A stretch of 64,000 nucleotides of DNA. Origin: a virus. Every line of letters starts with the position of its first letter. The first letter of the stretch is position 1. The stretch is from the IMG/VR virus record IMGVR_UViG_3300008119_000006, one strand, 5' to 3'. The translations under genes were made by a program, and so were the position numbers. Below are positions 842-26,085 of the stretch, piece after piece. A model generated the notes under the pieces. It was not told the DNA's origin. It made no database searches and saw only the letters and a list, made by a program, of their open reading frames with translations.

Positions 842-1381
842 ATGAAGTTAAGTATAGTTGGTTGTCCCGATAAAGAACGCTTTAGACCTTATGTCAAGCG
901 AGCTGCTCAGTTTTACGCTCAGGAACTAATATCTGAAAAAATGTTAGAAAACATCTTTGTTCGGATAAAGTTTAGTAAAGATTTACCTGCTTATGGTTAT
1001 GCTTCGGTAGAAGATTATAATGATAGTGGTAAACCTAGAGAATTTGAAATTGAGTTACATTCTGGCATTGGTGGTTATGATATTCTCAAAACATTAGCAC
1101 ATGAAATGGTTCATGTTAAACAATATGTTTATGGTGAAACCAATGAAAGATTATCTCGTTGGAAAGGCCAAAGAGTGGATTCTGATACCATTGATTATTG
1201 GGTTCAGCCTTGGGAAATAGAAGCACACGGATATGAAGCTGGTTTATTTACCAAATTTGCTATCAAAGAAAAACTTTGGGAAGTATTTGAAGGTGTTAGT
1301 AATCCAGATTCAGAAATTAAAATAGAACCTATAGGTTGGAAAAATATACCACAAATAACTATTGACAATCAACCTATATAA
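842..1381 (+). CDS. Zn metallopeptidase-like (SprT-like) protein
   Basis: LAHEMVHVKQY HExxH motif plus downstream PWEIEA; GGAG RBS. Confidence 0.7.
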   Translation: MKLSIVGCPDKERFRPYVKRAAQFYAQELISEKMLENIFVRIKFSKDLPAYGYASVEDYNDSGKPREFEIELHSGIGGYDILKTLAHEMVHVKQYVYGETNERLSRWKGQRVDSDTIDYWVQPWEIEAHGYEAGLFTKFAIKEKLWEVFEGVSNPDSEIKIEPIGWKNIPQITIDNQPI

Positions 1382-1390
1382 TGTTATAGT
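1362..1390 (+). promoter_or_regulatory. sigma70-type promoter for the tRNA locus
   Basis: TTGACA, 17-nt spacer, TATAGT just upstream of the tRNA-like gene. Confidence 0.7.
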
Positions 1391-1399
1391 ATTACATAT

Positions 1400-1469
1400 G
1401 CGGTCGGGGTATAGAACCAGAGTAGGTGTCCAACTTACTCATCTAGTGCGAATCTAGACCACCGCTCCA
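1400..1469 (+). tRNA. Non-canonical tRNA-Gly(TCC)-like RNA
   Basis: Acceptor GCGGTCG/CCACCGC with U73 and encoded CCA; anticodon arm GAGTAGG-TGTCCAA-CTTACTC; T-arm TCTAG-TGCGAAT-CTAGA; minimal D-arm GGT-ATAGA-ACC. Confidence 0.75.
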
Positions 1470-1488: not shown

Positions 1489-1662
1489 ATGGCAGTTTCG
1501 AAATCAAAAAAGAAAAATCCGATGTTAACGAAAAATGGTAAACCAAGATTAGGTCCATTAAACATTTCTCAATTAACAAAGATGTTAGACGGTGCTCGTA
1601 AGAAAAATGTTGCTAAGATTAAAAGAGCTATTGCAAAACGTTTAAAAACACAAACTATATAG
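1489..1662 (+). CDS. Small basic protein (57 aa) between tRNAs
   Basis: AAGGA RBS; MAVSKSKKKNPMLTKNGKPRLGPLN... Confidence 0.6.
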   Translation: MAVSKSKKKNPMLTKNGKPRLGPLNISQLTKMLDGARKKNVAKIKRAIAKRLKTQTI

Positions 1663-1666
1663 TTAT

Positions 1667-1741
1667 AGCGGGGTAGCTCAGAGGTAGAGCATTGGACTCA
1701 TAATCCAGGGGCCGTAGGTTCGATTCCTTCCCCCGCAACCA
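1667..1741 (+). tRNA. tRNA-Met(CAT), initiator-like 1:72 mismatch
   Basis: Cloverleaf, CTCATAA loop, GGTTCGATTCC T-arm, ACCA end. Confidence 0.9.
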
Positions 1742-9330: not shown

Positions 9331-9530
9331 TGGAAACTAGAACAAGGACTTTGGTTAAGACCATCATTTATAGGATTTGGGTCTTATGCTCAACCTATGT
9401 GATGTTATTGATAACAGGACAGAGTTTGACACAGGCTCTTGTTCCTACCATTATTATAAATTGTGTCTGGATGACATCGTATTATTTGTATGATAGACTT
9501 TGGACTCGTATTAAATGGGGTAGAGTATGA
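9327..9530 (+). CDS. DUF2061-like small membrane protein
   Basis: RTLVKTIIYRI...YYLYDRLW...WG pattern. Confidence 0.7.
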   Translation: MMETRTRTLVKTIIYRIWVLCSTYVMLLITGQSLTQALVPTIIINCVWMTSYYLYDRLWTRIKWGRV

Positions 9531-10636
9531 TATTAGAAAGAGTTGATGCTCTCCATGTCGCAAAGGCATTCCATGATTACTTTAGTAATATTGGAAGTAC
9601 CGAAGAATATATGCGTGATGAAAAATTGAAATCGGTTGCCGAAATTCCAGCATCATTATTTCCACCAGAAGATGATTTGTTCTCCGATTTCACCATGCAC
9701 CCAAATGATATGGATATTGAGGTGTGTGAAATACCCAATACTCAATTCGAAACATTACTTGCCATTACCTCTTCTCATGTCAATAAAGCACCAGTTGGTA
9801 GAAACATACAATTGGCAGTTAAGGAGAAGAACTCAGGAAAGATTCTAGGATTCATTCGGTTGGGATCACCTGTCATCTATATGAAACCTAGAAATGAACT
9901 CTTAGGACAGGTCTGGATCCAACAGGAAGATACTGCCAAACGATTCAATGCTTCTACTATTATGGGTTTTGTAATTGTACCATCTCAACCATTTGGTTTT
10001 AATTACCTAGGTGGCAAACTTCTATCTGCCATTTGTACCAGTCATACAGTAAGAGAAATCTGTAATAAGAAATACGATATGAATGTTTGCCTATTTGAAA
10101 CTACCAGTTTGTATGGAAGTACCAAGTCTGTATCACAATATGATGGCATGAAACCTTATATTCGTTTTAGAGGTTTGACCGAATCAGATATCGTACCAAT
10201 GATGCACGGTGAACGATATACAGATTTGAAGGCATTTGTGGAAAGTAAAGTTGGAGATTTATTGGCGGGAGATACATCAAGTACCAGTAGAAAACTAAGA
10301 ACTTTTACCAAGATGATTGCCTTAACAAAAGCCGCTCTAAAGGGAACATCTGAAGGCGATGCTTTCAACCTAACGATTGAGAACGCCAAAAAGTTGACAG
10401 AGAAAAAAAGATATTATACATCTGATTATGGATTCAAAAATTCAGTTGATTACATGAACTGTAAAACCGATAAACTTTTACCTGGTGAAAATTATGCCAA
10501 ACATGAACTGGCCAATATCATTGAGTGGTGGCGGAGCAAAGCTATAAATAGATACGAAACCCTTAAAACTGAGGGTAGATTAAGAACAGAATTAGAAATC
10601 TGGACTTCAGGCAAAGACATTCAAATCATTAGGTGA
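9527..10636 (+). CDS. DruA/DUF4338-like protein
   Basis: VP.QPFGFNYLGGKLL and ETTSLYG..SQYD motifs recalled from the DruA/DUF4338 family. Confidence 0.6.
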   Translation: MILERVDALHVAKAFHDYFSNIGSTEEYMRDEKLKSVAEIPASLFPPEDDLFSDFTMHPNDMDIEVCEIPNTQFETLLAITSSHVNKAPVGRNIQLAVKEKNSGKILGFIRLGSPVIYMKPRNELLGQVWIQQEDTAKRFNASTIMGFVIVPSQPFGFNYLGGKLLSAICTSHTVREICNKKYDMNVCLFETTSLYGSTKSVSQYDGMKPYIRFRGLTESDIVPMMHGERYTDLKAFVESKVGDLLAGDTSSTSRKLRTFTKMIALTKAALKGTSEGDAFNLTIENAKKLTEKKRYYTSDYGFKNSVDYMNCKTDKLLPGENYAKHELANIIEWWRSKAINRYETLKTEGRLRTELEIWTSGKDIQIIR

Positions 10637-12334: not shown

Positions 12335-13048
12335 ATGACTGCAACCGTGATTATACCGACCACAGGTGTTCCTGAGGTTCGTGATGCTATCAATTCTGTA
12401 TTAAATCAAACTTATCTCACTACTTGTTATGTGGTCGTTGATGGTGAAGAAAATTATGACAAAGCCAAAGCAATTGTTGATGATTATACACACGATGAAC
12501 GCTTTCGTGTTTGTTATTTACCAATCAATGTTGGTGCCAAAGGATTCTATGGCCACCGTGTGTATGCCGCATTTACACATTTGGTAGATACTGATTATGT
12601 AATGTATCTTGACCAAGATAATTGGTTGACCAGCCGCCATGTTCAAAATTGTGTTGAAACTATTGAAAGAAGAAACCTTGATTGGTGTTATTCACTAAGA
12701 CAAGTACACAATAAAGCAGGAGATTTTGTTTGCTTTGATGATTGTGAATCACTAGGTAAATGGCAAACATATCATGGTACGAATCACATTGATACAAACT
12801 CCTATTGCCTAAAGACTGAAATTGCTGTAAAATTGGCCTCTGCGTGGCACGGTGGTTGGGGCCAAGATAGAGTATTTCTTGGTGTAGTAACACAACACTT
12901 TCCTAAGTGGGATTGTACAAATGAATATACTGTGCATTATCGCACAGATGGTGGTAAAGGTTCTGTAACAACAGATTTCTTTATTAATGGTAACGAAGTA
13001 ATGTTGAAAAAATATGATGGGAAATATCCATGGCGTCAAAGAACTTAA
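12335..13048 (+). CDS. GT-A (GT2) glycosyltransferase
   Basis: TVIIPT, VVVDG, YLDQDN DxD motif. Confidence 0.85.
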   Translation: MTATVIIPTTGVPEVRDAINSVLNQTYLTTCYVVVDGEENYDKAKAIVDDYTHDERFRVCYLPINVGAKGFYGHRVYAAFTHLVDTDYVMYLDQDNWLTSRHVQNCVETIERRNLDWCYSLRQVHNKAGDFVCFDDCESLGKWQTYHGTNHIDTNSYCLKTEIAVKLASAWHGGWGQDRVFLGVVTQHFPKWDCTNEYTVHYRTDGGKGSVTTDFFINGNEVMLKKYDGKYPWRQRT

Positions 13049-13866
13049 TCATTGGTGGTTTTACAAACTACGGAATCAGTCAATTAAAACCTTGGGTACT
13101 ATCAGCAAAAGTTCATGCTGGTGATAATGATGTTGTTTTGGTTTATGGTAACGCCTCTGATGAAACCTTAGATTGGTTGATTGAACAAGGTGTTGTTATT
13201 GTTCCTATGCTAGAGGTTCCGAATGTGCCAATCCATGTATTACGGTTTCTATCAATCTATGAATATCTCCACAGATATTGGCAAGATTATGAGTATGTGA
13301 TTACCACAGATGTCAAAGATGTTTACTTTCAAACTGACCCATTTAAATTTCTAGTTAATCGTAAATTGGTTATTGCTTCTGAAGGTTTGAAATATAAAGA
13401 TGAATCGTGGGGTAACGAAAATCTATTTCAAGCTTATGGTCCATATGTTTATGAACAATTTAAAGAAAATGAAATCTTTAATGTTGGAACATTCGGTGGC
13501 CAATCTGAATATGTAAAAGATATGGTGTTTCATATCTTCACTAACGGCATCAACCGACCAATTCCTATTTGTGACCAAGCCGTATTCAATGTGTTACTCA
13601 ATACACAACCATTCAAAGATATTGCATCAAAAACAATTCAATGGGCAGCTGAACTAGGCACTATTATGGATCCATCAAAGATTGATGGTTTTAGACCTAA
13701 TCTTCTTTTTGCTGAGCCCGTTTGGGAAAATGGTTTACTGAAAGATGTCACAGGACATATCTTCCCTATTGTACATCAGTATGATAGAGTACCAGAAATT
13801 AAAGCGTTTGTCCAAAAGAAATTTGGCCAAGAAGATGAATCACAGTACTTTATTTACAGGACATAA
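13030..13866 (+). CDS. GT-A-like glycosyltransferase
   Basis: TDVKDVYFQ, NVGTFGG, DQAVFN, VHQYDR. Confidence 0.75.
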   Translation: MASKNLIIGGFTNYGISQLKPWVLSAKVHAGDNDVVLVYGNASDETLDWLIEQGVVIVPMLEVPNVPIHVLRFLSIYEYLHRYWQDYEYVITTDVKDVYFQTDPFKFLVNRKLVIASEGLKYKDESWGNENLFQAYGPYVYEQFKENEIFNVGTFGGQSEYVKDMVFHIFTNGINRPIPICDQAVFNVLLNTQPFKDIASKTIQWAAELGTIMDPSKIDGFRPNLLFAEPVWENGLLKDVTGHIFPIVHQYDRVPEIKAFVQKKFGQEDESQYFIYRT

Positions 13867-13867
13867 T

Positions 13868-14461
13868 ATGCAGGATTTTACTTTTGTTTATCGTACTGAT
13901 AACGGATCATTTGGTGCAATACAACCTAACACCGGCATTTATAGTCCTGCAATTGAACCATCAGGTCGTGGATTAGGCGAAATGGTTGCCAATAAGAATA
14001 AACCAGTTGTTTTAGAAATTGGTTGTGATTCAGGAGAAACAACACAATTTTTATTGGAATCAAATCCAGAATTAACAATTCATTGTGTTGACCCATATAC
14101 TGATTTTGAAGATTGGAATGGTTCTCATGTTACAAATAGAGAATCGATGTATCAAAGTGTACTACAACGCTTTGCGCCTTATGGTGAACGATTTAAACAG
14201 TATCGTCAAATATCGAATGACGCTTTAGATAATTTTGAAGATGGCCAATTTGATTTAATTTTCATCGATGGTCTACACACTTATGAACAAGTGTCGTGGG
14301 ATTGTGAAAACTATTATTCAAAAGTTAAAAAGGGTGGTGTATTTGCTGGCCATGATTTTGATGCCATTCCTGCCGTAAAACAAGCAGTAGAAGCATTTGC
14401 AGCAAAAATGAATAAAGTTATTATGGCTACTAATCATGATGTTTGGTATTGGATAAAGTGA
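13868..14461 (+). CDS. Class I SAM methyltransferase (Methyltransf_24-like)
   Basis: LEIGCDSG, VDPY, DLIFIDGLHTY, GHD. Confidence 0.85.
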   Translation: MQDFTFVYRTDNGSFGAIQPNTGIYSPAIEPSGRGLGEMVANKNKPVVLEIGCDSGETTQFLLESNPELTIHCVDPYTDFEDWNGSHVTNRESMYQSVLQRFAPYGERFKQYRQISNDALDNFEDGQFDLIFIDGLHTYEQVSWDCENYYSKVKKGGVFAGHDFDAIPAVKQAVEAFAAKMNKVIMATNHDVWYWIK

Positions 14462-15237
14462 AAACATTAATTGTAGGACAAAACAGTTTTATTGGTAAAC
14501 ATTTATTCCATAGTATCAAGAATGTGGATATTATTTCCTATTCCGATATTGACAATATTAATATGTCAGAGTATAATACTATATTAAATTGTGCCATCTC
14601 ACCGGAGATGAAGTTTGATGATTATAGAGAATATCGAGATATAGATTACAAAGTGGCCTGTAAGGCACGACTATACAACTGCCATTTTATAATGTTGAGT
14701 ACAAGAAAAGTTTATGGTAATTCCACAGAATTAAAAACATATAATGAAGAATCAGAATTAAATCCTTTTGATAAGTATAGTGAGAATAAACTCCGTTCAG
14801 AACAAAATATTTTAAAAGTAAATCCAACATCTACCATACTACGAGGTTCTAATGTAATTGGATTTGAATATGGCAGAAAGTCTTTTATGGGTTACTGTAT
14901 GACACAATTAAAGAACAATGATGAAATACTATATGAGATGGATCCAGATTTGAAACGAGATTTTATCGATATAGATAATGTATGTAAAACACTAAAAAAA
15001 GTAATTGAAGTAAAACCACAAGGGATTTATAATCTAAGTTCTAATATTGGTTTCAGTATTGGTGATGTATCAAAGTTGTTAATTAAAGGTTATGGTTCAG
15101 GTAAGATGGTTGTTGATATCACCAAACAAGGTGAACAGTTTATCTTAGACAATACTAAATTGGAGGCTGCTCTAAATACAAGTATAGGACCATTTGACTT
15201 TGATAATATCATTTTTGAAATTGGAAAAAAATTATGA
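14458..15237 (+). CDS. NAD-dependent epimerase/dehydratase
   Basis: GQNSFIG, STRKVYG, YSENK (YxxxK), RDFIDI. Confidence 0.8.
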   Translation: MKTLIVGQNSFIGKHLFHSIKNVDIISYSDIDNINMSEYNTILNCAISPEMKFDDYREYRDIDYKVACKARLYNCHFIMLSTRKVYGNSTELKTYNEESELNPFDKYSENKLRSEQNILKVNPTSTILRGSNVIGFEYGRKSFMGYCMTQLKNNDEILYEMDPDLKRDFIDIDNVCKTLKKVIEVKPQGIYNLSSNIGFSIGDVSKLLIKGYGSGKMVVDITKQGEQFILDNTKLEAALNTSIGPFDFDNIIFEIGKKL

Positions 15238-15713
15238 AAATTGGATTTAATTGTTCGTCATTCGACCTTCTTCATGCTGGCCATGTTACCATGTTGAAGA
15301 TGGAAAAACAACTTTGTGACTATCTCATTGTCGCACTTCAAGTAGACCCCACCATTGACCGACCAGGCGTCAAAAATAAACCATCACAATCAGTATATGA
15401 ACGATATGTACAATTACAAGGTTGTAAGTATGTTGATGAAATTTTGGTATACAGTACCGAAGCTGATTTATTAAATCTAATTCAAACTCAAACAATGCAC
15501 ATTCGTTTTTTAAGTGAAGAATATCTTAACCGTGACTTTACTGGTAAACAATATTGTTTAGATAATGATATTGAAATACACTATCATAAACGCCAACACA
15601 CATACAGTTCTTCAGAATTAAGAAAGCGTGTTTATGAATTGGAGAAGAAAAAAAATGAAGAACAATTTAAAGTAGAAGTACCACAACATTCACCCACATT
15701 GATAAAACCATGA
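15234..15713 (+). CDS. Cytidylyltransferase (TagD/RfaE-like)
   Basis: FDLLHAGH, CKYVDE, YSSSELR. Confidence 0.88.
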   Translation: MKIGFNCSSFDLLHAGHVTMLKMEKQLCDYLIVALQVDPTIDRPGVKNKPSQSVYERYVQLQGCKYVDEILVYSTEADLLNLIQTQTMHIRFLSEEYLNRDFTGKQYCLDNDIEIHYHKRQHTYSSSELRKRVYELEKKKNEEQFKVEVPQHSPTLIKP

Positions 15714-16534
15714 ATAATGACGTAAGTATTGTAACATTCTTTTTTGATACTGGTCGTGGTGATTGGACACCTGATAAAGGTTTTCCACATTACTTACATC
15801 GCACAGTAGACACTTATTTTGAACGCTTTGGTTACATGGCGCAGTTAGATAATGAAATGATTATCTACACATCGCCGGAGTTTGTTGACCGTGTAATGGC
15901 CTTACGAAAAGGTAAAGAAGATAAGACCAAGGTTATTCCTTTTGACTATCATGGTCAATTTGCAGAACAGAAGAAAAAGTACTATGATATTCAAAGAATG
16001 GAATCATATGCTAGTAGAGTTAATCCTTCACAAAGATTAAATCCAGAATATTGGAATCCTGATTACATACAGTTGATGTACCTCAAGTCATTCTTTATTA
16101 AGTGGGCTTTGGATAATAATCTAATTACCAATGACTATGTTGCTCAGATTGATTTCGGTTATTGTAGGACACCTGATAAGATTCCTTCAAGTAAGAAATG
16201 GTCTTATGACTTTGGTAAAGACAAATTACAATTATTTGGTTACAGGCCATTTTTAAAAGGTCAACCAATTGAAGATGTAATCTTTAATAATATTGTTTAC
16301 ATTCTTGGCGCAAAGCAAGTTGGACATAGAGATTTATGGCCAGAAGTAAATCGATTAATTGTAGAGAGTATGGATGAATTGTTATCAAAGAATTTAATTG
16401 ATGATGACCAAACATTATGGTTAATGGCTTCATTAAAGAAACCAGAAATGTTTAATCTGAATATTATTCCTGACCACCAATTAGGTCACGATTCGTTTGT
16501 TTTGTTTAATAACTTTAATGATACTGTAAAATGA
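15710..16534 (+). CDS. HtrL/YibB (WlaTC) family glycosyltransferase
   Basis: IVTFFFDTGRG, PEYWNPDY, IDFGY, DDDQT. Confidence 0.8.
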   Translation: MNNDVSIVTFFFDTGRGDWTPDKGFPHYLHRTVDTYFERFGYMAQLDNEMIIYTSPEFVDRVMALRKGKEDKTKVIPFDYHGQFAEQKKKYYDIQRMESYASRVNPSQRLNPEYWNPDYIQLMYLKSFFIKWALDNNLITNDYVAQIDFGYCRTPDKIPSSKKWSYDFGKDKLQLFGYRPFLKGQPIEDVIFNNIVYILGAKQVGHRDLWPEVNRLIVESMDELLSKNLIDDDQTLWLMASLKKPEMFNLNIIPDHQLGHDSFVLFNNFNDTVK

Positions 16535-17274
16535 AATTATATCTTGTCGGCACAGCCAACCTTGGCGACTTTTTAAATGGTATGCCTGTATTATCAGGCC
16601 TGAGTAAAAAATTTGGTAAGTATGATTTAATCATCAAATCACCAATGCGTAAGTTTAACGGCATCAAAGAATTCTTGATGTACCAAGATTTGTTCTCTAG
16701 TGTGGAATTTGATGACGAAGTATTCATGTATGGTGAAGTGGTTCAATTAAGTTCATGGCCAATTCGTGAAGATAAAAAAGATCCTAATCGACCAATTGAA
16801 ACTTGCCGTTATGAAAACTGGATGAATGACAAGTATGGTGTTGATTTTCAAGTTGACGATGACTTTATTGTAAAGACACCAGAGTTCGATATTGAAATTA
16901 AAGATACCTACTATGTTGGTGACCGTTGGGCAGTAGGTGATATTGATGCTCGTAGAGAAACCCACATTCTATCACACCTCACTCAATATGAGTTCATTGA
17001 TTTCAATCGACCAATGTTAGAAAATGCGTATATCATTAAAAATTTAAAGAAACCATTTATTACCAATTTAACTGGTGTCGGAATGCTTGCCGACCTATGT
17101 AATGTTCCTTTATACTGTGTGTGGAAAGCAGAAGATTGGAAGCCAGAATGGCGAGTTGGTGATGATGTTCTTTGGGATGAAAATAAGAATATCGATAAAG
17201 TATTTGAGAAACATTTCTACTTAGACCGTAAAGGCAAATTAGTTCATGCAAAAGATTTGGAGGCCTTACTATGA
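16531..17274 (+). CDS. GT9-like glycosyltransferase (putative)
   Basis: N-terminal NLGD motif; FITNLTGVGMLA. Confidence 0.5.
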   Translation: MKLYLVGTANLGDFLNGMPVLSGLSKKFGKYDLIIKSPMRKFNGIKEFLMYQDLFSSVEFDDEVFMYGEVVQLSSWPIREDKKDPNRPIETCRYENWMNDKYGVDFQVDDDFIVKTPEFDIEIKDTYYVGDRWAVGDIDARRETHILSHLTQYEFIDFNRPMLENAYIIKNLKKPFITNLTGVGMLADLCNVPLYCVWKAEDWKPEWRVGDDVLWDENKNIDKVFEKHFYLDRKGKLVHAKDLEALL

Positions 17275-17948
17275 ATGAAGATACAGCAGTTGTAGTAACT
17301 GCCTATTGTGATGGCCAGAATCCTGAAGAAAAAAGGAAAATGGCCAAGACTTTGGTAAAAAGTTTAAAAGAAAAAGGTCATTATGTTTGTATGACCACAC
17401 ATTCAGTTTTAGATGAAGAAACTCAAAGTTATTGTGACGCCTATCTCTATGATAAGAATAATCCATGGCAGATTAATGGACAACCAACAAGACCAAACCA
17501 CGCTGTCGCAGAATTAATTCTGATGCACACAGCCAATGACTTTGTACAAAAATATGGTTTCAAAAATGTTTTTAAGATGACCTTTGATTTGAGTCCTAAT
17601 CTTGATGTACATGAAATTATCAATCGTAGTAAATCAAAAAATAAAAGATTGGTTACTTGTAGAAACAACACCGATTTAGGAACATTGTGTTTCTTTTCTG
17701 ATGTTGGTTTTTTAAGAGAAACCTTTCAGATGGACCAAATACATAGAATTAGTCCAGCAACAAACTACTCAGTTGAACCTACATGGTATCAATTAGTATT
17801 AGAAAAAGGATTGATAGATGAAACTTGTGATGAATATCCTTTATATCATGATTTTCTAAACATTCCACATGATGAACCCATGCACTATTCTGAAGTAGAT
17901 GATGTGCATTTGACCAACAAGATGCACGAATATAATTTTAATCTATGA
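17271..17948 (+). CDS. Putative glycosyltransferase-like protein
   Basis: Island context; AVVVTAY N-terminal strand, FKMTFD. Confidence 0.45.
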   Translation: MNEDTAVVVTAYCDGQNPEEKRKMAKTLVKSLKEKGHYVCMTTHSVLDEETQSYCDAYLYDKNNPWQINGQPTRPNHAVAELILMHTANDFVQKYGFKNVFKMTFDLSPNLDVHEIINRSKSKNKRLVTCRNNTDLGTLCFFSDVGFLRETFQMDQIHRISPATNYSVEPTWYQLVLEKGLIDETCDEYPLYHDFLNIPHDEPMHYSEVDDVHLTNKMHEYNFNL

Positions 17949-18436
17949 ATATTTTAACATACAAGGGTAGAGATTACCCACACTTTCAAGCCGAAGGTAA
18001 CGCATCACAATTTGCTATTCCATTTGCCAAACATTTTTGTAAAGGTTATGGAATAGATGTTGGTTGTAATCGTCAAGACTGGTGTTTTCCTGGTGCTATT
18101 GGTGTTGATTTAAATTTCAATGACGGTAATACAGCATACAATTTTGAATATAAAGATTTAGATTATGTTTACTCTAGTCATTGTTTGGAACATCTTCCAG
18201 ACTGGGTTACTGCTTTGGATTATTGGACAGCAAATCTAAAACCAGGCGGTGTACTGTTCTTGTATTTGCCTCACTATAATCAAGAATATTGGAGACCATT
18301 CAACAACAGAAAACATATCCATATGTTCTCTACTGAAAGTATTAGAGATTACATGATTGACCGTGGTTATATTAATATTTTTAATTCAGGCCGTGATATG
18401 AACGATTCGTTTATGATTGTAGGAGAGAAAAAATGA
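17945..18436 (+). CDS. Class I SAM methyltransferase
   Basis: IDVGC, DYVYSSHCLEH, LKPGG. Confidence 0.85.
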   Translation: MNILTYKGRDYPHFQAEGNASQFAIPFAKHFCKGYGIDVGCNRQDWCFPGAIGVDLNFNDGNTAYNFEYKDLDYVYSSHCLEHLPDWVTALDYWTANLKPGGVLFLYLPHYNQEYWRPFNNRKHIHMFSTESIRDYMIDRGYINIFNSGRDMNDSFMIVGEKK

Positions 18437-19140
18437 TTTTTAATATCGAAACGGGAGTATTTGGCGGTCCTGCTAGAAGTGGTGATTTGATTGCTATTGC
18501 CAATGTGGTTGCACATATGCGTAAACAGAATCCAGAAATTAAGTTTCACATGAAACAAGGTTCAATTAATTCAACCGACTATTGTGGTAAGATGTATAAT
18601 TTTCTTTTGGAACATACTGACTACTTTTCAGAAACTCCAGGTGAACAGTCTTTGCCATGGAGAAAAGTAAATATATTTGATTTCCGTGATATCTCTGGTG
18701 ACCAAGTTATTATTAAAAATGACAAAGAACAAAAGAAGAAAATTGTTGTGTGTCCAGTCCTCGATGCACCATATAATCAATATCGTAATTGGCCAGAGTC
18801 CACATTTCAGAGTATCATTGGCAAATTTGGCGAAGAACAATATAAAGATTATGAAAAGGTGATATGTGTTTCTCCAAATATAGCACTCAGACCAATTGAT
18901 GACTGGCAAATATCCACGGATTATGATACCAATCTAAATCATATTTTAGAGGCAGAAATCTTTGTTGGTGGTGATACCGCTACGTCCCACTTGGCAGGTT
19001 CGCTTGACAATGGACCTAAGGTTATGTTATACTTCTATTCCAGTCGAGCATTGGTTCATTCTTTCCCAATGCACTACCTAAATGGTAGAGGCAAACTTAT
19101 TACATATTGGTTAGATTTTGAAGGTACTACTTGGAGTTGA
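18433..19140 (+). CDS. GT9-like (heptosyltransferase-like) protein
   Basis: SGDLI, RNWP, FVGGDTATSHLAG. Confidence 0.6.
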   Translation: MIFNIETGVFGGPARSGDLIAIANVVAHMRKQNPEIKFHMKQGSINSTDYCGKMYNFLLEHTDYFSETPGEQSLPWRKVNIFDFRDISGDQVIIKNDKEQKKKIVVCPVLDAPYNQYRNWPESTFQSIIGKFGEEQYKDYEKVICVSPNIALRPIDDWQISTDYDTNLNHILEAEIFVGGDTATSHLAGSLDNGPKVMLYFYSSRALVHSFPMHYLNGRGKLITYWLDFEGTTWS

Positions 19141-19142
19141 AA

Positions 19143-20180
19143 ATGAGTAAAAACGTATTGATTACTGGCGGTGCCGGTTTTATTGCACATCATGTTATTG
19201 ACAAGATGCTTAAAGAAACAGATTGGAATATTACTTGTCTGGATCGTTTGGACATTTCTGGAAACTTAAATCGTTTACATGATATGTTACAAGACCATGA
19301 CCCAAAAATTATTTCTTCCCGTTTGCGTATTGTGTTCCACGACCTCAAAGCCGAACTAAATGAAATGATTGTCAAAGACATTGGTCAGATTGATATCGTT
19401 TTACATTTGGCTGCCGGCAGTCATGTAGACCGAAGCATTGAATATCCACTAGAGTTTGTACAAGATAATACTGTTGGTACAGTTAATATGTTAGACTATG
19501 CTCGTAAACATTTACCTAACTTAGAACGATTTGTATATTTCTCAACTGATGAAATTTTTGGTGTGGCACCTCCTGGTGTGGCATACAAAGAATATGACCG
19601 ATACAATTCAACAAACCCGTATTCAGCAAGTAAGGCTGCAGCAGAAGAATTCTGTGTTGCTTATGAGAACACTTACAAGATGCCTATTGTAGTTACACAC
19701 ACAATGAATGTGTTTGGTGAACGTCAACATCCTGAGAAGTTTATTCCAATGTGTATTCAGCGTGCTCGTGATGGTGAGAAAGTATACATTCATGCCAATG
19801 CTGATTGTACTGAAGCAGGTACTCGTATGTACATTCATGCCAAAGATGTAGCAGAAGGTCTAATGTTTATTCTTAATAATTTACCTAAAGATTATAAACA
19901 TACTGGTGATTATGGTTGGGCTCATTGTCCTAAATTCAATCTTGTTGGCACAGAAGAAATTGATAACTTGTCTTTGGCTAAGATGATTGCTGAAGCACAA
20001 GGCAAAGAACTTAATTATGAAATGGTTGATTTCCACGGCAGTAGACCTGGCCACGATTTACGATATGCACTTGATGGTGGCCTATTGAAATCTTTAGGAT
20101 GGGAACCAAAGATTAAGTTGAGTGAGCGTATTAAAGAAATGACACTTTGGACATTGGAGAACAAGCGTTGGCTTCACTAG
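19143..20180 (+). CDS. rfbB: dTDP-glucose 4,6-dehydratase-like
   Basis: TGGAGFI, LAAGSHVDRSI, STDE, PYSASKA, RPGHDLRY. Confidence 0.9.
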   Translation: MSKNVLITGGAGFIAHHVIDKMLKETDWNITCLDRLDISGNLNRLHDMLQDHDPKIISSRLRIVFHDLKAELNEMIVKDIGQIDIVLHLAAGSHVDRSIEYPLEFVQDNTVGTVNMLDYARKHLPNLERFVYFSTDEIFGVAPPGVAYKEYDRYNSTNPYSASKAAAEEFCVAYENTYKMPIVVTHTMNVFGERQHPEKFIPMCIQRARDGEKVYIHANADCTEAGTRMYIHAKDVAEGLMFILNNLPKDYKHTGDYGWAHCPKFNLVGTEEIDNLSLAKMIAEAQGKELNYEMVDFHGSRPGHDLRYALDGGLLKSLGWEPKIKLSERIKEMTLWTLENKRWLH

Positions 20181-20932
20181 GAATATTCCATTGGAATAAA
20201 AACAATAAATCGGGGCTTGATGCCTCGATTGCTTCATTCCGTAAATTTCATCCAGACATTCCATATTTCGTATCAGTTGATGGTGGTAGCGTAGACCAAT
20301 ACGACATATGTAAAAAACATAATGCAATCTATTTGCAGAATGTTTCCACTCTTGGTTATCCTTCTCAACATTGGGGATACAATAAATTTCAGATTTATGA
20401 ATTTATGAAGCGCATCATGATGGCCGCTATTGCTATGGGTACTACACACTTTATGTTTTGTGAAGATGATGTTATCTGTTTAGATAAAATTGAATTTGAT
20501 GAATCTTGGGAAATTGCTTCATACGATACTCGTTATGTTGATGGAGTATTTGTTGGCCATAATGCGTTTAGTTATATACATGATGAAATACAAGATGAGA
20601 TTAGGAGGGTTTCTGGTGTAAAACCTAATCACCCATACTATGGTGCTGGTGCCGGTACAATTATGAATACTGCAACATTTATTGAAAACTTTTACAAGTA
20701 TATGAATTTTTTATCTGTAAATTTTGACAAGTTTCATGCTATTCAACACCAGTTTGGTTGGAATGATTATTTCTTACAGATGTTATTCTTTGTTGCAGGT
20801 AAACCGTATTCAATTAATCCTCGTTTACACAATATTCATCCTGAAGATCCAAATACTGATTTAAATGCTATTAAAGAAAAAGGTTTCTATATTGCACATA
20901 ATTATAAGAATTTTTATGAAGGTAGACAATGA
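20147..20932 (+). CDS. GT-A-like glycosyltransferase (start uncertain)
   Basis: VSVDGG, FCEDDV; island context. Confidence 0.6.
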   Translation: MDIGEQALASLGIFHWNKNNKSGLDASIASFRKFHPDIPYFVSVDGGSVDQYDICKKHNAIYLQNVSTLGYPSQHWGYNKFQIYEFMKRIMMAAIAMGTTHFMFCEDDVICLDKIEFDESWEIASYDTRYVDGVFVGHNAFSYIHDEIQDEIRRVSGVKPNHPYYGAGAGTIMNTATFIENFYKYMNFLSVNFDKFHAIQHQFGWNDYFLQMLFFVAGKPYSINPRLHNIHPEDPNTDLNAIKEKGFYIAHNYKNFYEGRQ

Positions 20933-21717
20933 AAATTAGATTATACAACCACCACTATCTAACCGATGATGGTTCATGGGTTTATATCTTTATGGACCAA
21001 ATGAAGCAATTAGAAGATTTTGGTTTGTATGATGAAATGGAAGTTCTTAGTTATACGGCATTAGGTAATCAAGAACAAATTAAATTGTTCAAAGACCTTT
21101 GTGCTTTGTATCCCAAAATTGAGATTCATGAAATTCATAATGATGTAACTGGTGAAGAATTAAAGGACTTCTCTAGCGCAAAAGGCCAAGAACAAAAGAA
21201 ATTTGTATTTGAAATTCCAACAATTAAAAGAATGTGGTTAGATGCACAAACACAAGATTTTTATGGATTGTATTTTCACGGCAAAGGTGTTACAGCATTT
21301 AACAATGCCTTTAAAGTTGGTGACGTTGCCAAGTTTAAGAACTATTACTACTGGAGAAAATATCTAGAGTATGGTTTTATTGAACGATGGAAAACTTGTG
21401 TTGAAGCTCTAGAACGATACGAAACTGCGGGTATCAATTTAAATCACGATCCATTCCTACATTATAGTGGTAACTTCTGGTGGTTGAGAAGTGACTACAT
21501 GAGAACATTGGATGACATTGAAGATTCACAATGGTGGAAAGAGAATAAACAACCATATCATTTGGACAGAATGATTGCTGAATTTTGGCCGTTATCTAAA
21601 GCTAATAAAATATTCAATATAGATAGTCCACCACTAAGGCTTTGTTCACCAAATCCTGGTTTATATTCTGAAACATATATGAGAAAATATTATGATAGAG
21701 AACTTACAAGAAATTAA
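20929..21717 (+). CDS. Putative glycosyltransferase (HxKG / GNFWW type)
   Basis: YFHGKG, HYSGNFWW, R..AEFW motifs typical of viral sugar islands. Confidence 0.55.
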   Translation: MKIRLYNHHYLTDDGSWVYIFMDQMKQLEDFGLYDEMEVLSYTALGNQEQIKLFKDLCALYPKIEIHEIHNDVTGEELKDFSSAKGQEQKKFVFEIPTIKRMWLDAQTQDFYGLYFHGKGVTAFNNAFKVGDVAKFKNYYYWRKYLEYGFIERWKTCVEALERYETAGINLNHDPFLHYSGNFWWLRSDYMRTLDDIEDSQWWKENKQPYHLDRMIAEFWPLSKANKIFNIDSPPLRLCSPNPGLYSETYMRKYYDRELTRN

Positions 21718-22882
21718 AAGGTGTTTAGCGTGTGACCATGATAATTTGAAGATGGTCTTAGATTTAAATAACCAGCCCCTCGCCAATTCTTACAAAAACA
21801 GTAAAGACGCTGTTGAGGATTCTTTTCCATTGGCGATTAAGGTGTGTCAAGTTTGCCACCATGTTCAACTGACACATATTGTTAATCCAGATTTAATTTA
21901 TAAAAATTATTTATATGTGAGTGGTACAACAAAAACTTATGTTGATTACATGGATTGGTATGCTAAATTTTGTATTGAAAAACTTGGCCATACACCATCT
22001 TCAGTATTGGATATTGGTTGTAACGATGGTTCACAATTGGATAAATTTAAAGCTCTTAATGTTGATACCTATGGTGTTGATCCAGCTGAAAATTTATATG
22101 AAACATCTTCAAAAAATCACAAAGTAACTTGTGGTTATTTTGATGATAAGTACAACCGCAGTCATGACATTATTACAATACAAAATGCTTTTGCGCACAA
22201 TCCAAATCCTTTAGAGTTGTTAAAAAACTGTAAAAAGAATTTGGAGATTGACGGACTATTGTTTATTCAAACATCACAAGCAGACATGATTTTGAATAAT
22301 GAGTTTGATACAATCTATCACGAACACATTTCATATTATAATATTAAATCGATGATGTTCTTGTGTAATCGTGTTGGATTGAATTTAATTGATGTGGTAA
22401 AAACACCGATTCACGGAACAAGTTATATCTTTATTATTAGTGCTGACAGGTCTGCACCAAATACAATCAAGAATTTAGTTGAAATGGAAACTGCTGCTGG
22501 ACTATACGACAATTTCACTTATACAAAATACACTTCAAATTGTATTGAAAAAGTTGCCAATTTTGCCGAGAGAGTTGAATACTGGCGTGACCAAGGTTAT
22601 AAGATTGTTGGTTATGGAGCCCCAGCAAAAGGAAACACATTCTTAAACTTTGCCAGAATACCACTTGATATTATTATTGATGACAATAAGTTGAAACAAG
22701 GTTTGTTTACACCTGGTTCATCCATTGAAATTGTTGGTTCTGAAATTCTTGGTACATATACTGAGGATGATAAAGTATTATTTATTCCTTTGGCTTGGAA
22801 TTTCTTCAAAGAAATCAAACAAAGAATTTTATCAGTCCGAAACAATCCAAATGATGTATTTCTGAACATCCAAGACCTATAA
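21692..22882 (+). CDS. NDP-hexose C-methyltransferase-like
   Basis: CxxC...QPLAN...CxxC..VQL Zn domain, LDIGCNDG, YHEH, YGAPAKG, LAWNF. Confidence 0.88.
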   Translation: MIENLQEIKRCLACDHDNLKMVLDLNNQPLANSYKNSKDAVEDSFPLAIKVCQVCHHVQLTHIVNPDLIYKNYLYVSGTTKTYVDYMDWYAKFCIEKLGHTPSSVLDIGCNDGSQLDKFKALNVDTYGVDPAENLYETSSKNHKVTCGYFDDKYNRSHDIITIQNAFAHNPNPLELLKNCKKNLEIDGLLFIQTSQADMILNNEFDTIYHEHISYYNIKSMMFLCNRVGLNLIDVVKTPIHGTSYIFIISADRSAPNTIKNLVEMETAAGLYDNFTYTKYTSNCIEKVANFAERVEYWRDQGYKIVGYGAPAKGNTFLNFARIPLDIIIDDNKLKQGLFTPGSSIEIVGSEILGTYTEDDKVLFIPLAWNFFKEIKQRILSVRNNPNDVFLNIQDL

Positions 22883-22961: not shown

Positions 22962-23005
22962 AGTAGACCGGCAACCAAAGTGTGTTGCAATCTGGAAGGA
23001 AAATA

Positions 23006-24196
23006 ATGCAATCGTTTTTATCATTCTTAAAAGAAGAAGCCAGCGAAGGTTCTGAACTTAAGCATATTCATCATGCTGAGGACCGTCCTTTAATGCACGG
23101 CCATGCTGGTTTTGAACACGCTCATGCGGCTTTAACTAAAGCTCATGAACATATGACCGGTGGCCACAAGAATACAAATTTAACAATGAAATACGATGGT
23201 TCTCCATCGATTGTATTTGGTCATCATCCTAAGAATGGTAAGTTCTTTGTGGCAACCAAGTCTGCCTTCAATAAGAATCCTAAGATTAACCATACAGAAA
23301 AAGATATTGATAGGAACCATGGTCACGCTCCGGGTTTAGCACATACTCTTAAACACGCTCTCAAACATCTACCAAAAGTAACACCTAAAACTGGTGTATT
23401 CCAAGGTGACTTGATGCACCACGCCGATACCAAAACCCTACACGAAGGTTATATTGTAGAAGCCAAAGGCGATGTTTCTTTTACTCCCAATACAATCACT
23501 TATACCGCCAAAGGTAAAGAAGCAGACAAGATTAAAAAGTCTAAGGTTGGCGTAGTGGTTCATACACAATACAGCCATGACTTAAAACACAATACTCCTC
23601 ATGTAGATACAAGCAAATTTAAAGAGCATCCGGATGTTCATATTCACGGTGCAGAACATGATACAAGCAAAGTAAAACATTCTGCTGAGAATGAAAAACA
23701 CTTCCAAAAACACATGGCGGCCGCCAAAGATATTCACGATACTCATGGTCACAAAATGTACGATGCCGTTCATCCAAAACATAGCGGAGAACACGGACAT
23801 CTTGCTACATACATAAACAAGACAGTAAGACATGATGAAGTTCCAAGTGTTAAGGGATTCAAAGAACACTTACATGGAGAACATGAAAAACAAGCCGCAA
23901 AAGTTAAGACCGATAAAGCCAAATCTGAAAAAACTGGTGAAGGCAAGAAACAAGTTGCTCACGTTGAGAAACATAAAGAACATTATGGAAACCTATTTTC
24001 GATGCATCATCATTTACATCAAGCCAAAAATGCTTTAGTTAAATCCCTAGAAACGCATGAGGGACACTATCAGCACCACATCGCAGGTAAGAAGTCTAAA
24101 CCTGAAGGTTTCGTAGTTCACCACGATAATCAACCAACCAAATTGGTTAACCGTGCTGAGTTTGCTAAACAGAATCTTTTAAAAGTTCGTAAATGA
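23006..24196 (+). CDS. His-rich ligase-fold (DUF6267-like) protein
   Basis: KYDG (motif I), QGDL, EGFVV, KLV motifs of covalent nucleotidyltransferases; capsid-targeting-like N-terminus. Confidence 0.65.
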   Translation: MQSFLSFLKEEASEGSELKHIHHAEDRPLMHGHAGFEHAHAALTKAHEHMTGGHKNTNLTMKYDGSPSIVFGHHPKNGKFFVATKSAFNKNPKINHTEKDIDRNHGHAPGLAHTLKHALKHLPKVTPKTGVFQGDLMHHADTKTLHEGYIVEAKGDVSFTPNTITYTAKGKEADKIKKSKVGVVVHTQYSHDLKHNTPHVDTSKFKEHPDVHIHGAEHDTSKVKHSAENEKHFQKHMAAAKDIHDTHGHKMYDAVHPKHSGEHGHLATYINKTVRHDEVPSVKGFKEHLHGEHEKQAAKVKTDKAKSEKTGEGKKQVAHVEKHKEHYGNLFSMHHHLHQAKNALVKSLETHEGHYQHHIAGKKSKPEGFVVHHDNQPTKLVNRAEFAKQNLLKVRK

Positions 24197-26085
24197 AATC
24201 GTTTTTAGAATTAGTCGAAGAATCAAAACAAGGTGAGAAACACCATGTGTTCACTTTTGGCCGGATGAATCCGCCAACTGCAGGACATTTAAAATTAATT
24301 GACAAAGTGAAAGAAGTTGCAAAACAACACAATGCCAGCCATACAGTTGTTACTTCACATTCACAAGATGCCAAAAAGAATCCTTTAAGTGCTAAAGAAA
24401 AAGTTAAACACTTGCAGAAATATTCTCCTGGTACACACTTTCAAGCTTCTACAAAAGAACATCCTACATTCTTACATCACGCAGAAAAGTTACACAAACA
24501 AGGTGTAACTCATTTACATATGGTTGTTGGTTCTGACCGTGTAAAAGAGATGAAAGAAAAGTTACACAAATACAATGGCACACACAAAGGTGCTTTACAT
24601 AACTTTAAAAAGATTACTGTACATTCTGCCGGCCATCGAGATCCTGATGCAGAAGGTACCGAAGGTGTGTCTGGTACCAAGATGAGAGAACACGCAAAAA
24701 ATAAAAACTTTGGTGAGTTCCGTAAAGGTGTTCCTGCTCATGTATCAGATACTCATGCAAAAGAATTAATGCATGACACTCGTAAAGGTATGGGATTACA
24801 TGAGTCCTATAATCGTGGACTATTCAAAGCAATCTTTGTAACTGGTGGTCCAGGATCCGGTAAAGATATCATTATTCGTGAAGCTATTGCTGAAGGTCGT
24901 ATTGTAGAATTCAATTTTACGCAAGCTTGTGATATTTTAAACGACAAACATAAATTAGCAACCAAATCTATGAATCCTCGTTATGAATCTGTTCGTAATC
25001 GTGGTCCATTAATCATTAACGGACCAGCTGATGACCTTGAGAAGATTTCACACATTAAAGAAGAATTGGAAGAACTTGGTTACGAAACAATGATGATTTT
25101 TGTTAGTACCAGCAACGAAACCAGTCAAGAACGTAATTCTTTATTGTCCCGTATGATGGTAGAATCTGTACGCAATGATAAGTGGCAAAAGTCACAGGAA
25201 AACATTATACAGTTCACAAAATTGTATAATAACTTGGTAACCTTTGATAATACTGGTGACCTCGAAAGTAAAGAGCAGGATATACATGAAGTTTACAACC
25301 AAACCAAAAACTTCTTGGATAACAACGTTTTAAATGAAATCTCCATTGATTGGATGAACAGAAACAATAAACTAAATACAGGTAATAAATTATTATTTGG
25401 AGAACAAAATGTTAAAGGCACTTCTAAGTCTATTCAGCAAAAAACAGTCGGAAGATACAATCCTTTCCTCCGAGCAAAAGGACCAGCAGACATTAAGCCA
25501 GACAACTCAGGATCTCTCGTTAGTGGAAAAGACCAAGTCCAAGGTGACACCGGTCCAAGAAAAAACACAGGTATTGGAAGTTCAGTCACAGGCGGTGGAT
25601 GGAGTGGCGCCTACGAAGAAAGTCAGCCCACGCTCAAAATCAACTCCGAGCCCAAAGAGACCAACTTCCAGCAGGACAAAGACAAAGAAAAAGTAAAAAA
25701 ACGTGGTGATAAATCACTAAGCGCTGGTCGTGTTGCAAGACCTAGTGGAGTAGGTCAAGAATACGATACCAGAGCCGGTGGTCAAGGCGCCGCAGCAGGT
25801 GCCGGACTTGGCCAGAACCTTTACGGTGAAACACAAGAATATAGTAACGCAAGTCAGAATGGTACAGCAATGCTTGGTGCTAAGTTAGAACCAAATCCAT
25901 TGGCTGAAAAGAAGAAGAAAAAACTGACATTTAAAGAGTATAACGGATTCCAAAATGATGTTGAATCTGGTGTTGGTGGTGTATTAGGTGGTGGGGATAA
26001 TAAAGAATATATGGACACATATAAAGATCCAAACCGAAACATAGGCATTGAAATTAAAAAGAAAAAGAAAAAAGGAGCAATTTAA
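24193..26085 (+). CDS. HxGH-class nucleotidyltransferase fused to a P-loop kinase-like domain and low-complexity tail
   Basis: FGRMNPPTAGH, KNPL, VVGSDR, SGTKMR; then VTGGPGSGKD. Confidence 0.8.
   Translation: MKSFLELVEESKQGEKHHVFTFGRMNPPTAGHLKLIDKVKEVAKQHNASHTVVTSHSQDAKKNPLSAKEKVKHLQKYSPGTHFQASTKEHPTFLHHAEKLHKQGVTHLHMVVGSDRVKEMKEKLHKYNGTHKGALHNFKKITVHSAGHRDPDAEGTEGVSGTKMREHAKNKNFGEFRKGVPAHVSDTHAKELMHDTRKGMGLHESYNRGLFKAIFVTGGPGSGKDIIIREAIAEGRIVEFNFTQACDILNDKHKLATKSMNPRYESVRNRGPLIINGPADDLEKISHIKEELEELGYETMMIFVSTSNETSQERNSLLSRMMVESVRNDKWQKSQENIIQFTKLYNNLVTFDNTGDLESKEQDIHEVYNQTKNFLDNNVLNEISIDWMNRNNKLNTGNKLLFGEQNVKGTSKSIQQKTVGRYNPFLRAKGPADIKPDNSGSLVSGKDQVQGDTGPRKNTGIGSSVTGGGWSGAYEESQPTLKINSEPKETNFQQDKDKEKVKKRGDKSLSAGRVARPSGVGQEYDTRAGGQGAAAGAGLGQNLYGETQEYSNASQNGTAMLGAKLEPNPLAEKKKKKLTFKEYNGFQNDVESGVGGVLGGGDNKEYMDTYKDPNRNIGIEIKKKKKKGAI

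Follow-up and report, generated by a model that had tools for sequence, protein, structure and literature searches.

The viral DNA analysed here, one strand of 64,000 nucleotides from IMG/VR record IMGVR_UViG_3300008119_000006 (hereafter the window), encodes at positions 1400-1469 a compact tRNA-Gly-like RNA that is almost certainly a real, strongly selected derivative of tRNA-Gly with the appearance of an expressed gene. On the pattern of what its sequence family has kept and lost, the most likely reading is that it would be charged with glycine and would not decode. In the complete account, to which we give roughly even chances, this tRNA-Gly descendant is glycine-charged, kept off the ribosome and used as a donor by DruA-type GNAT acyltransferases of the same phage; its partnership with these enzymes, and their target, we infer from gene content and predicted fold. 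The window belongs to an uncultured T4-like phage, since it encodes UvsX, a gp41-like helicase and a family B DNA polymerase of the gp43 type; no phage in GenBank is closely related to it, and its polymerase is about 50% identical to those of cyanomyoviruses.

A compact cloverleaf under selection for its helices

The sequence features listed in a preliminary description of this locus, those of the RNA as well as the TTGACA-17-TATAGT promoter in front of it, are all present in the letters of window 1362-1469 at their assigned positions. The cloverleaf (Table 1) is the minimum-free-energy fold of 1400-1469, at -25.5 kcal/mol and with a z-score of -3.2, and none of 200 shuffled sequences is as stable. 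Its anticodon, UCC (1429-1431), is preceded by G33; a pair between positions 32 and 38 is possible and would reduce the loop to the pentamer GUCCA, and the variable region is a single nucleotide (nt). Compared with a canonical tRNA, the RNA has the four-helix cloverleaf with a seven-base-pair (7-bp) acceptor stem and a 5-bp T stem, save for a C-C mismatch, and lacks both the elbow formed by G18G19 and T54-Psi55-C56 (Psi, pseudouridine) and the open 7-nt anticodon loop with U33 and purine 37. The D and T loops, AUAGA and UGCGAAU, are constant across the type A sequences defined below. ARAGORN makes no call on 1400-1469, finding only tRNA-Met, tRNA-Tyr and tRNA-Glu in the window, and the Rfam tRNA model (RF00005) gives no match to it at a cutoff as loose as E<=10. 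Its short D stem (3 bp) and long anticodon stem (7 bp) together make up the usual arm of about 10 bp, so that the distance from anticodon to CCA is probably kept; across the family, the 3+7 or 3+8 bp of the two stems come close to the usual 4+5 bp with the 26:44 layer added, and the dimensions of the L-shape are probably preserved.

The promoter, an 11/12 match, is the best promoter-like site within 1200-2100, and the 9 nt between the end of its -10 hexamer and G1400 leave a leader of only a few bases. Both hexamers and their spacing are conserved in related loci, in which the spacer sequence is variable. The compact RNA is part of a phage tRNA cluster and always heads its transcription unit.

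Using the upstream open reading frame (ORF; 842-1381) as query, we found 589 related viral loci and retrieved 80 of them. Close relatives of the window RNA (type A, 70 nt) were found at about 35 loci and comprise 15 distinct variants, 84-100% identical to it. Over 24 type A loci, mean identity to the window is 94% in the element, 85% in the promoter block, 74% in the upstream ORF and 70% in the downstream DNA; in one locus (L039) the element is 100% identical within a 745-nt alignment over element and flanks that is 80% identical overall. In several loci the element persists at 84-93% identity between flanks that do not align with those of the window, so that its conservation does not depend on its surroundings. 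With a covariance model of type A we reached a diverged, 67-nt type B, represented after a pattern scan by 38 distinct 67-mers and some 68-mers, and with type C (69 nt, L049) and type D (67 nt, L251:1501-1567) the family comprises about 60 distinct variants. In a 16-mer exact-match scan, about half of the matches were chance occurrences in unrelated contigs. Searches of GenBank phages with the window and the type A and B RNAs (megablast/blastn) returned no relative of the RNA, only the tRNA-Met and a short polB stretch; the family is absent from Rfam, and we found no description of it in the published literature searched.

The RNA structure of this family lies far beyond chance. Ninety-five percent of the cells in the type A alignment are paired, against 28-45% in slid controls, and five pairs have changed on both sides: acceptor pair 5:68 (U-A to A-U), anticodon-stem pair 23:39 and three pairs of the T stem. 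The C-C mismatch at 6:67 is itself retained in nearly all type A variants, with U-C in one. Type B is likewise 95% paired, with double changes at 11 of its 22 pairs that span all four helices; at D-stem pair 10:15, for example, 25 variants have A-U and 13 have G-C. Neither the covariation score nor the paired fraction observed for type A or type B was matched by any of 500 shuffles, and for type B none of five observed measures was attained by any of the 500. Positions 32 and 38 also covary like a real base pair, being occupied by U-A in type A, by A-U or G-C in type B, by C-G in type C and by G-C in type D; the anticodon loop may therefore be a pentaloop. The preliminary description had argued from the pairing of the stems that the gene is not decaying; conservation in excess of the flanks and compensatory changes, found in the acceptor, anticodon and T stems of related loci and in all four helices of type B, bear this out.

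Glycine identity is fixed while decoding features drift

The bacterial glycyl-tRNA synthetase (GlyRS) identity set that had been noted in the window RNA proved to be a property of the whole family: G1-C72, C2-G71, G3-C70, U73, C35, C36 and the encoded CCA are invariant in all ~60 variants of every type. Exactly these three base pairs, U73, C35 and C36 are given as the glycine determinants of bacterial GlyRS (PMC9976931). Position 34, by comparison, varies among A, U and G across the family, with ACC as the anticodon in 31 of the 38 distinct type B 67-mers, UCC in the remaining 7 and GCC in one 68-mer. A fixed identity set together with a free position 34 fits selection for recognition by the synthetase and not for reading a particular codon. 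Elsewhere in the molecule, type A invariably has G33, most type B variants have C37, no family member has GG in its D loop, and the Psi55-C56 position is occupied by G55-C56 in types A to C and by G55-A56 in type D.

Canonical tRNA-Gly genes often accompany the compact ones. A canonical 74-nt tRNA-Gly(UCC) trails the compact gene by a few bases in many loci; one locus (L038) carries type A, type B and canonical tRNA-Gly genes, and another (L065) has 19 tRNAs, among them Gly(UCC) and Gly(GCC), in addition to a type B RNA. All 33 distinct canonical tRNA-Gly(UCC) variants of these loci retain a TTCRA T loop, which indicates that two classes of Gly-type gene are maintained in parallel. ARAGORN finds no canonical tRNA-Gly in the 64-kb window itself.

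Non-standard T loops are common in the tRNA genes of these phages. Initiator-like tRNA-Met genes (A1 opposite A72) with a UGC T loop lie at L002:3695-3768, L052:6171-6244 and L251:1574-1648, some clade members also having GG-less D loops; several Asp, Ile, Glu and His tRNA genes carry AUCGU or AUCGA T loops, with A54 for T54, and some Arg, Pro and Trp tRNA genes a UUUGA T loop. The tRNA-Met of the window is canonical, unlike the UGC-loop tRNA-Met genes of the clade.

The T loop alone is therefore not diagnostic, and a UGC T loop as a signature of Gly-type genes only was ruled out by the initiator-like tRNA-Met genes. The A-U-rich T stem, which the preliminary description had counted among the hallmarks of lost translation for its contact with EF-Tu, had to be dropped as well: it is common to the canonical phage tRNA-Gly genes alongside, and other type A variants have C-G/U-A there. 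What speaks against decoding is instead a combination, namely G33 or C37, the paired 32:38, the free position 34, the lost elbow and the adjacent canonical gene. The earlier proposal that the RNA is built to be charged but not to translate is accordingly favoured by the comparative pattern (fixed identity set, free 34, no elbow, parallel canonical genes), which supports it in part.

A DruA-type GNAT as candidate partner

A Pfam scan of 28 window ORFs brought up a DruA-like protein above the Pfam DruA threshold, encoded behind the gp41-like helicase gene (Table 1), and no other obvious aminoacyl-tRNA-dependent enzyme. Its AlphaFold2 model, built from a 50-sequence alignment, reaches a pLDDT (predicted local distance difference test) of 94, and Foldseek places it among GNAT acyltransferases and malonyl-CoA decarboxylases. 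In a second look with VIA-align, the top match was Mom of phage Mu (8bv8; Z 10.6, root-mean-square deviation (rmsd) 4.2, 183 residues aligned), and a VIA-align search of 48,161 chains that was independent of Foldseek again put 8bv8 first (Z 10.3, rmsd 3.8, 171 of 202 residues aligned); FemA was the seventh structural match, with Z 9.0. Phmmer/hmmsearch comparison of DruA with the PDB gave nothing relevant, and a literature search for DruA in connection with GNAT or for a DUF4338 function yielded nothing useful.

DruA genes are present in all 17 related large contigs, usually as two paralogues, and the compact RNA in 16 of the 17, lying between the two paralogues wherever coordinates were returned. 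Fem transferases (PF02388) are found in none of five large related contigs; control genomes do match. Among GenBank phages, 31 carry DruA-like genes, and public metagenome proteins include 6,340 homologues (E<=1e-5) of the window protein, a sign that the clade is abundant. We consider a DruA-type GNAT to be the best candidate user of the glycyl-RNA.

Two side observations concern DruA-like genes of cyanophages. In S-SSM7 the DruA-like gene is followed at a distance of 3.2 kb by a lone canonical tRNA-Gly(UCC) gene (GU071098.1:151563-151633, L210), which has no encoded CCA and is separated from the main tRNA cluster by about 65 kb. The DruA-like homologue of S-SCSM2R (PQ898602.1:133706-134827, L205) is labelled 'methylcarbamoylase mom' in GenBank, despite having no match to the Pfam Mom family in sequence.

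Proposed pathway

In the pathway that we propose, host RNA polymerase would transcribe the RNA from its own strong early-type promoter, and the transcript would be trimmed to a 70-nt molecule with a CCA end. The bacterial-type GlyRS of the host could then add glycine, all identity elements of acceptor and anticodon being retained, and the lost D/T elbow and abnormal anticodon loop would bar the glycyl-RNA from decoding, creating a private pool of activated glycine. The most likely consumer of this glycine would be the DruA-type GNAT acyltransferase, or acyltransferases, of the replication module, by a chemistry that may resemble that of Mom of phage Mu, which takes glycine from Gly-tRNAGly and attaches it to DNA. 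That the compact RNA is specifically the private glycyl carrier of DruA-type GNATs installing a glycine-derived hypermodification in DNA is a tentative extension, which we rate as possible rather than probable. The preliminary description had suggested a donor for a non-ribosomal phage reaction; the DruA-type GNATs, with Mom as their nearest structural match, now offer a plausible user and lend partial support to a role that we infer.

Weighing the evidence

Several observations weigh against this account. On the side of the enzyme, generic GNATs score less than one Z unit below Mom, within the margin of a tie, though with only about 140 residues aligned. No sequence similarity is detectable between the DruA and Mom families, the hhalign probability being 0.3% for the family profiles and below 1% for DruA against Mu Mom or against a 30-sequence Mom alignment. 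True Mom (PF25680) is found in none of five related contigs, four of them at least 90% complete, and no Mom profile matches the six frames of the window. The co-occurrence of DruA and the compact RNA is moreover largely a property of one clade, and strict co-occurrence is refuted by six DruA-positive complete cyanophages: S-SSM7, DSL-LC02, S-SCSM2R and S-T4 have DruA with a canonical tRNA-Gly(UCC) only, and S-PRM1 and S-SM2 have no match to the type A covariance model. DruA thus does not require the compact RNA, just as Mom needs no private tRNA. On the side of the RNA, the closest large relative of the window (G001, 82% complete, with an identical element) has the compact RNA as the sole Gly-type tRNA gene found, its other tRNA genes being Met, Thr and Met only, which would fit a translational role. 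At least a dozen variants of initiator-like tRNA-Met(CAU) in the clade carry UGC T loops. By analogy, a compact core may also be compatible with decoding, as those of tRNAPyl and mitochondrial tRNASer(UCN) (mt-tRNASer(UCN)) do translate (PMC7609411).

These points on the RNA bear directly on the strongest alternative, an unusual but working elongator tRNA-Gly that would supplement GGA/GGN decoding during infection in the manner of tRNAPyl or mt-tRNASer(UCN), which we judge unlikely while taking it more seriously than any other rival. Such a tRNA would be at home in a phage tRNA cluster, would fit the preserved summed length of the D and anticodon stems (3+7 bp), and would be the only Gly-type tRNA found in G001, as an aberrant tRNA-Gly(ACC) is the sole tRNA of the cultured phage HTVC008M; odd T loops are found on other tRNAs of the clade as well, and the compact tRNAs just named do translate. 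Positions 32 and 38 can form a Watson-Crick pair, and Watson-Crick pairs at 32:38 tune GC-rich anticodons. In this family, however, 32:38 covaries as a true helix pair that includes G-C, G33 is invariant in type A and pyrimidine 37 prevails in type B, and the elbow has neither G18G19 nor Psi55. Nor does the anticodon behave as that of a decoding tRNA, with A34 dominant and position 34 drifting among close relatives while C35 and C36 stay constant, and the neighbouring gene is often a canonical tRNA-Gly that has this UCC anticodon too.

Somewhat less probable again is a decoy or resistant stand-in for defence toxins that read the acceptor end of tRNA-Gly, such as TacT and FaRel2, or for anticodon nucleases, the latter an idea of the preliminary description that gained no specific support. 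According to the account of Yashiro 2021 given in PMC9976931, TacT-type GNAT toxins acetylate Gly-tRNAGly via U73 and G71, and FaRel2-type toxSAS enzymes pyrophosphorylate the CCA end of tRNAGly and tRNAThr (PMC11245113), so that acceptor-reading toxins pick tRNA-Gly by features that the compact RNA would present. The invariant acceptor stem, U73 and CCA, and the strong early-type promoter, would suit a sponge of this kind. An acceptor-end sponge would nevertheless need no invariant C35 and C36 unless it were charged, the locus offers no pointer to a defence target, and the anticodon loop differs between types, making one specific anticodon nuclease an unlikely target. We also know of no TacT- or FaRel2-type toxin in the presumed hosts.

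A purely cis-acting role, in which a tRNA-like signal for RNase P/RNase Z would free the downstream mRNA and tRNAs without any function in trans, appears improbable. No terminator separates the element from the 57-aa ORF and tRNA-Met that follow, and it always stands first in its transcription unit, as such a signal might; an acceptor/T minihelix would suffice for the purpose, yet neither the anticodon arm nor C35, C36 or U73 varies, and the element holds its 84-93% identity where the flanks fail to align. A decaying tRNA-Gly pseudogene would be rejected by standard tRNA finders, as this RNA is, but we give that explanation practically no weight for a gene far more conserved than its flanks, with covarying helices and a conserved promoter.

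Comparison with known systems

The closest functional precedent for a glycine-charged, non-decoding RNA is provided by the non-proteogenic tRNAGly species NP1-NP3 of Staphylococcus aureus and S. epidermidis, which PMC7826273 describes as glycyl donors for FmhB/FemA/FemB and as a kind of tRNA known only in staphylococci. As far as read, that paper confirms one of two losses for which the preliminary description had cited these species, the TGC/TGT T loop without pseudouridine, and not the other, the loss of GG from the D loop. NP1-NP3 and the phage RNA thus share retained GlyRS identity and a UGC/UGU T loop, hence no Psi55 (PMC7826273). The staphylococcal species are extra tRNA-Gly paralogues beside translating ones, an arrangement found in many of the related phages but not in the window or in G001. 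They have a normal cloverleaf size and U33, in contrast to the 3-bp D stem, 7-bp anticodon stem and 1-nt variable region of the phage RNA, and they are host-encoded and serve Fem transferases, whereas the RNA described here is phage-encoded in genomes whose related contigs are without Fem PF02388. A tRNA-Gly-like RNA family is in this case encoded by phages and has been remodelled much further than the staphylococcal species.

For the enzyme, the model is Mom of phage Mu, which transfers glycine from Gly-tRNAGly to N6 of adenine in double-stranded DNA and for which all Gly isoacceptors of Escherichia coli work (PMC13219725; bioRxiv 10.1101/2023.03.24.534169). Mom (PDB 8bv8, PF25680), with R111 and S124 as catalytic residues, is, like the candidate considered here, a phage GNAT, it uses Gly-tRNAGly outside the ribosome, and it is the nearest solved structure to the DruA-like protein of the window. 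Mu nevertheless encodes no tRNA and relies on any host isoacceptor, whereas the window clade brings its own RNA and has no PF25680 gene, and the DruA and Mom profiles cannot be aligned. A tRNA-Gly-like 'pseudo-tRNA' was reported in 2011 from within mom homologues on ssrA genomic islands of Dehalococcoides (PMC3146451), where, much as in the phages, a mobile element carries a conserved tRNA-Gly-like locus in physical linkage with a Mom-type gene. By its description, and not by sequence comparison, that locus is set apart as 76 nt long and situated inside the mom coding sequence of a bacterial island; the phage RNA is free-standing and compact and lies 8 kb from the DruA-type gene.

In architecture, the nearest parallels are tRNAPyl and mammalian mt-tRNASer(UCN), with which the phage RNA shares a 1-nt linker, a 5-nt D loop, a long anticodon stem and a short variable region (PMC7609411); with its linker of 1 nt, D loop of 5 nt, anticodon stem of 7 bp and variable region of 1 nt, the window RNA falls within the definition of a compact core. 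tRNAPyl is also without G18G19 and T-Psi-C (PMC7609411). Both differ from the phage RNA in that they decode, have U33 and purine 37, an anticodon stem of 6 bp (7-8 in the phages) and a variable region of 3 nt (1 in the phages), and carry other amino-acid identities.

Cultured relatives and significance

Aberrant tRNA-Gly(ACC) genes accompany DruA genes in two cultured Pelagibacter phages, HTVC008M and Mosig (Table 1); in the related Methylophilales phage Melnitz, neither DruA nor an aberrant tRNA-Gly was found. The HTVC008M gene, unannotated in its GenBank record and by Rfam the sole tRNA of that phage, passes both Rfam tRNA (49.5 bits) and ARAGORN, and has the T loop AGCGUUA; that of Mosig is missed by both programs. 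The two share with the compact RNA the acceptor end, U73, CCA, C35 and C36, G55 and C56 in their T loops, a GG-less D loop with the UAUAGAA motif of the window RNA, and, with most of type B, A34. They differ from it in their normal dimensions, with a length of 74 nt, an anticodon stem of 5 bp and a variable region of 4 nt. In HTVC008M the aberrant gene immediately precedes rpsU, the S21 gene of the phage.

If the compact RNAs feed glycine to phage GNATs, the newly found chemistry of Mom (PMC13219725) would extend to a different enzyme family, the odd tRNA-Gly(ACC) that is the sole tRNA of HTVC008M would be accounted for, and an activity would be suggested for DruA/DUF4338, a protein of defence systems. 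Should the DruA-type GNATs moreover place a glycine-derived modification on phage DNA, this would be a second system of tRNA-dependent DNA modification, separate from the Mom family and supplying a non-decoding tRNA of its own. Its setting would be one of the most abundant groups of myophages of fresh and marine waters, including phages of SAR11, and it would open a first biochemical approach to the DruA of Druantia type I. The contrast between HTVC008M and Mosig, with both features, and Melnitz, with neither, makes the idea directly testable in cultured phages. Whatever the function, ARAGORN and Rfam overlook an RNA family that is conserved in hundreds of environmental contigs, and censuses of phage tRNAs, along with the host predictions built on them, miss these genes.

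Feature coordinates and other genes of the window

Table 1. Coordinates of the compact RNA, its promoter, neighbouring and candidate partner genes, and of aberrant tRNA-Gly genes in cultured phages (window positions unless an accession is given)
Feature	Position	Strand	Remarks
Compact tRNA-Gly-like RNA, type A	1400..1469	+	70 nt including encoded CCA; minimum-free-energy cloverleaf; 15 variants; compensatory changes
Acceptor stem, 5' strand	1400..1406	+	Pairs with 1459-1465; 7 bp; C-C mismatch at 6:67
Linker	1407	+	One G between acceptor and D stems
Reduced D arm	1408..1418	+	3-bp stem, 5-nt loop AUAGA, without G18G19
Extended anticodon arm	1420..1440	+	7-bp stem 1420-1426/1434-1440; loop UGUCCAA 1427-1433
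T arm	1442..1458	+	5-bp stem, loop UGCGAAU; G replaces the U that becomes Psi55
Acceptor 3' strand, discriminator and CCA	1459..1469	+	3' strand 1459-1465, U73 1466, encoded CCA 1467-1469; invariant in all variants
Sigma-70-type promoter	1362..1390	+	TTGACA 1362-1367, 17-nt spacer, TATAGT 1385-1390, TG extension
Lysine-rich 57-aa ORF	1489..1662	+	Own Shine-Dalgarno; basic; start conserved in many loci
Canonical tRNA-Met(CAU)	1667..1741	+	Next gene of the tRNA cluster; 63.9 bits
DruA/DUF4338-type protein, GNAT-fold core	9527..10636	+	Replication module, behind gp41-like helicase; PF14236, 34.7 bits
HTVC008M aberrant tRNA-Gly(ACC)	KC465899.1:91140-91213 (L209:1501-1574)		74 nt; match to type A covariance model
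Mosig aberrant tRNA-Gly(ACC)	MT647606.1:7779-7852 (L248:1501-1574)	-	74 nt; T loop GGCAGUA

Because no terminator was found between the compact RNA and the 57-aa ORF or tRNA-Met, the 57-aa ORF is probably co-transcribed with the RNA. Its product has no Pfam match, and the possibility that it is ribosomal protein S21, as encoded beside the HTVC008M tRNA, was rejected for lack of similarity; in other relatives the slot of this ORF is occupied by a canonical tRNA-Gly.

Within the replication region, positions 12335-22882 hold a run of sugar-modifying genes that includes a GT2 glycosyltransferase, several S-adenosylmethionine (SAM) methyltransferases, among them a C-methyltransferase, NAD epimerases/dehydratases, a cytidylyltransferase and HtrL/YibB. 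For six ORFs of the run (225-278 aa) no Pfam match was obtained, and one of them could be a further transferase. The run is followed by a DUF6267 protein (22982-24196, 320 bits) and by a 630-aa protein (24193-26085) that combines a cytidylyltransferase-like domain with a weak match to a zeta-toxin-like kinase.

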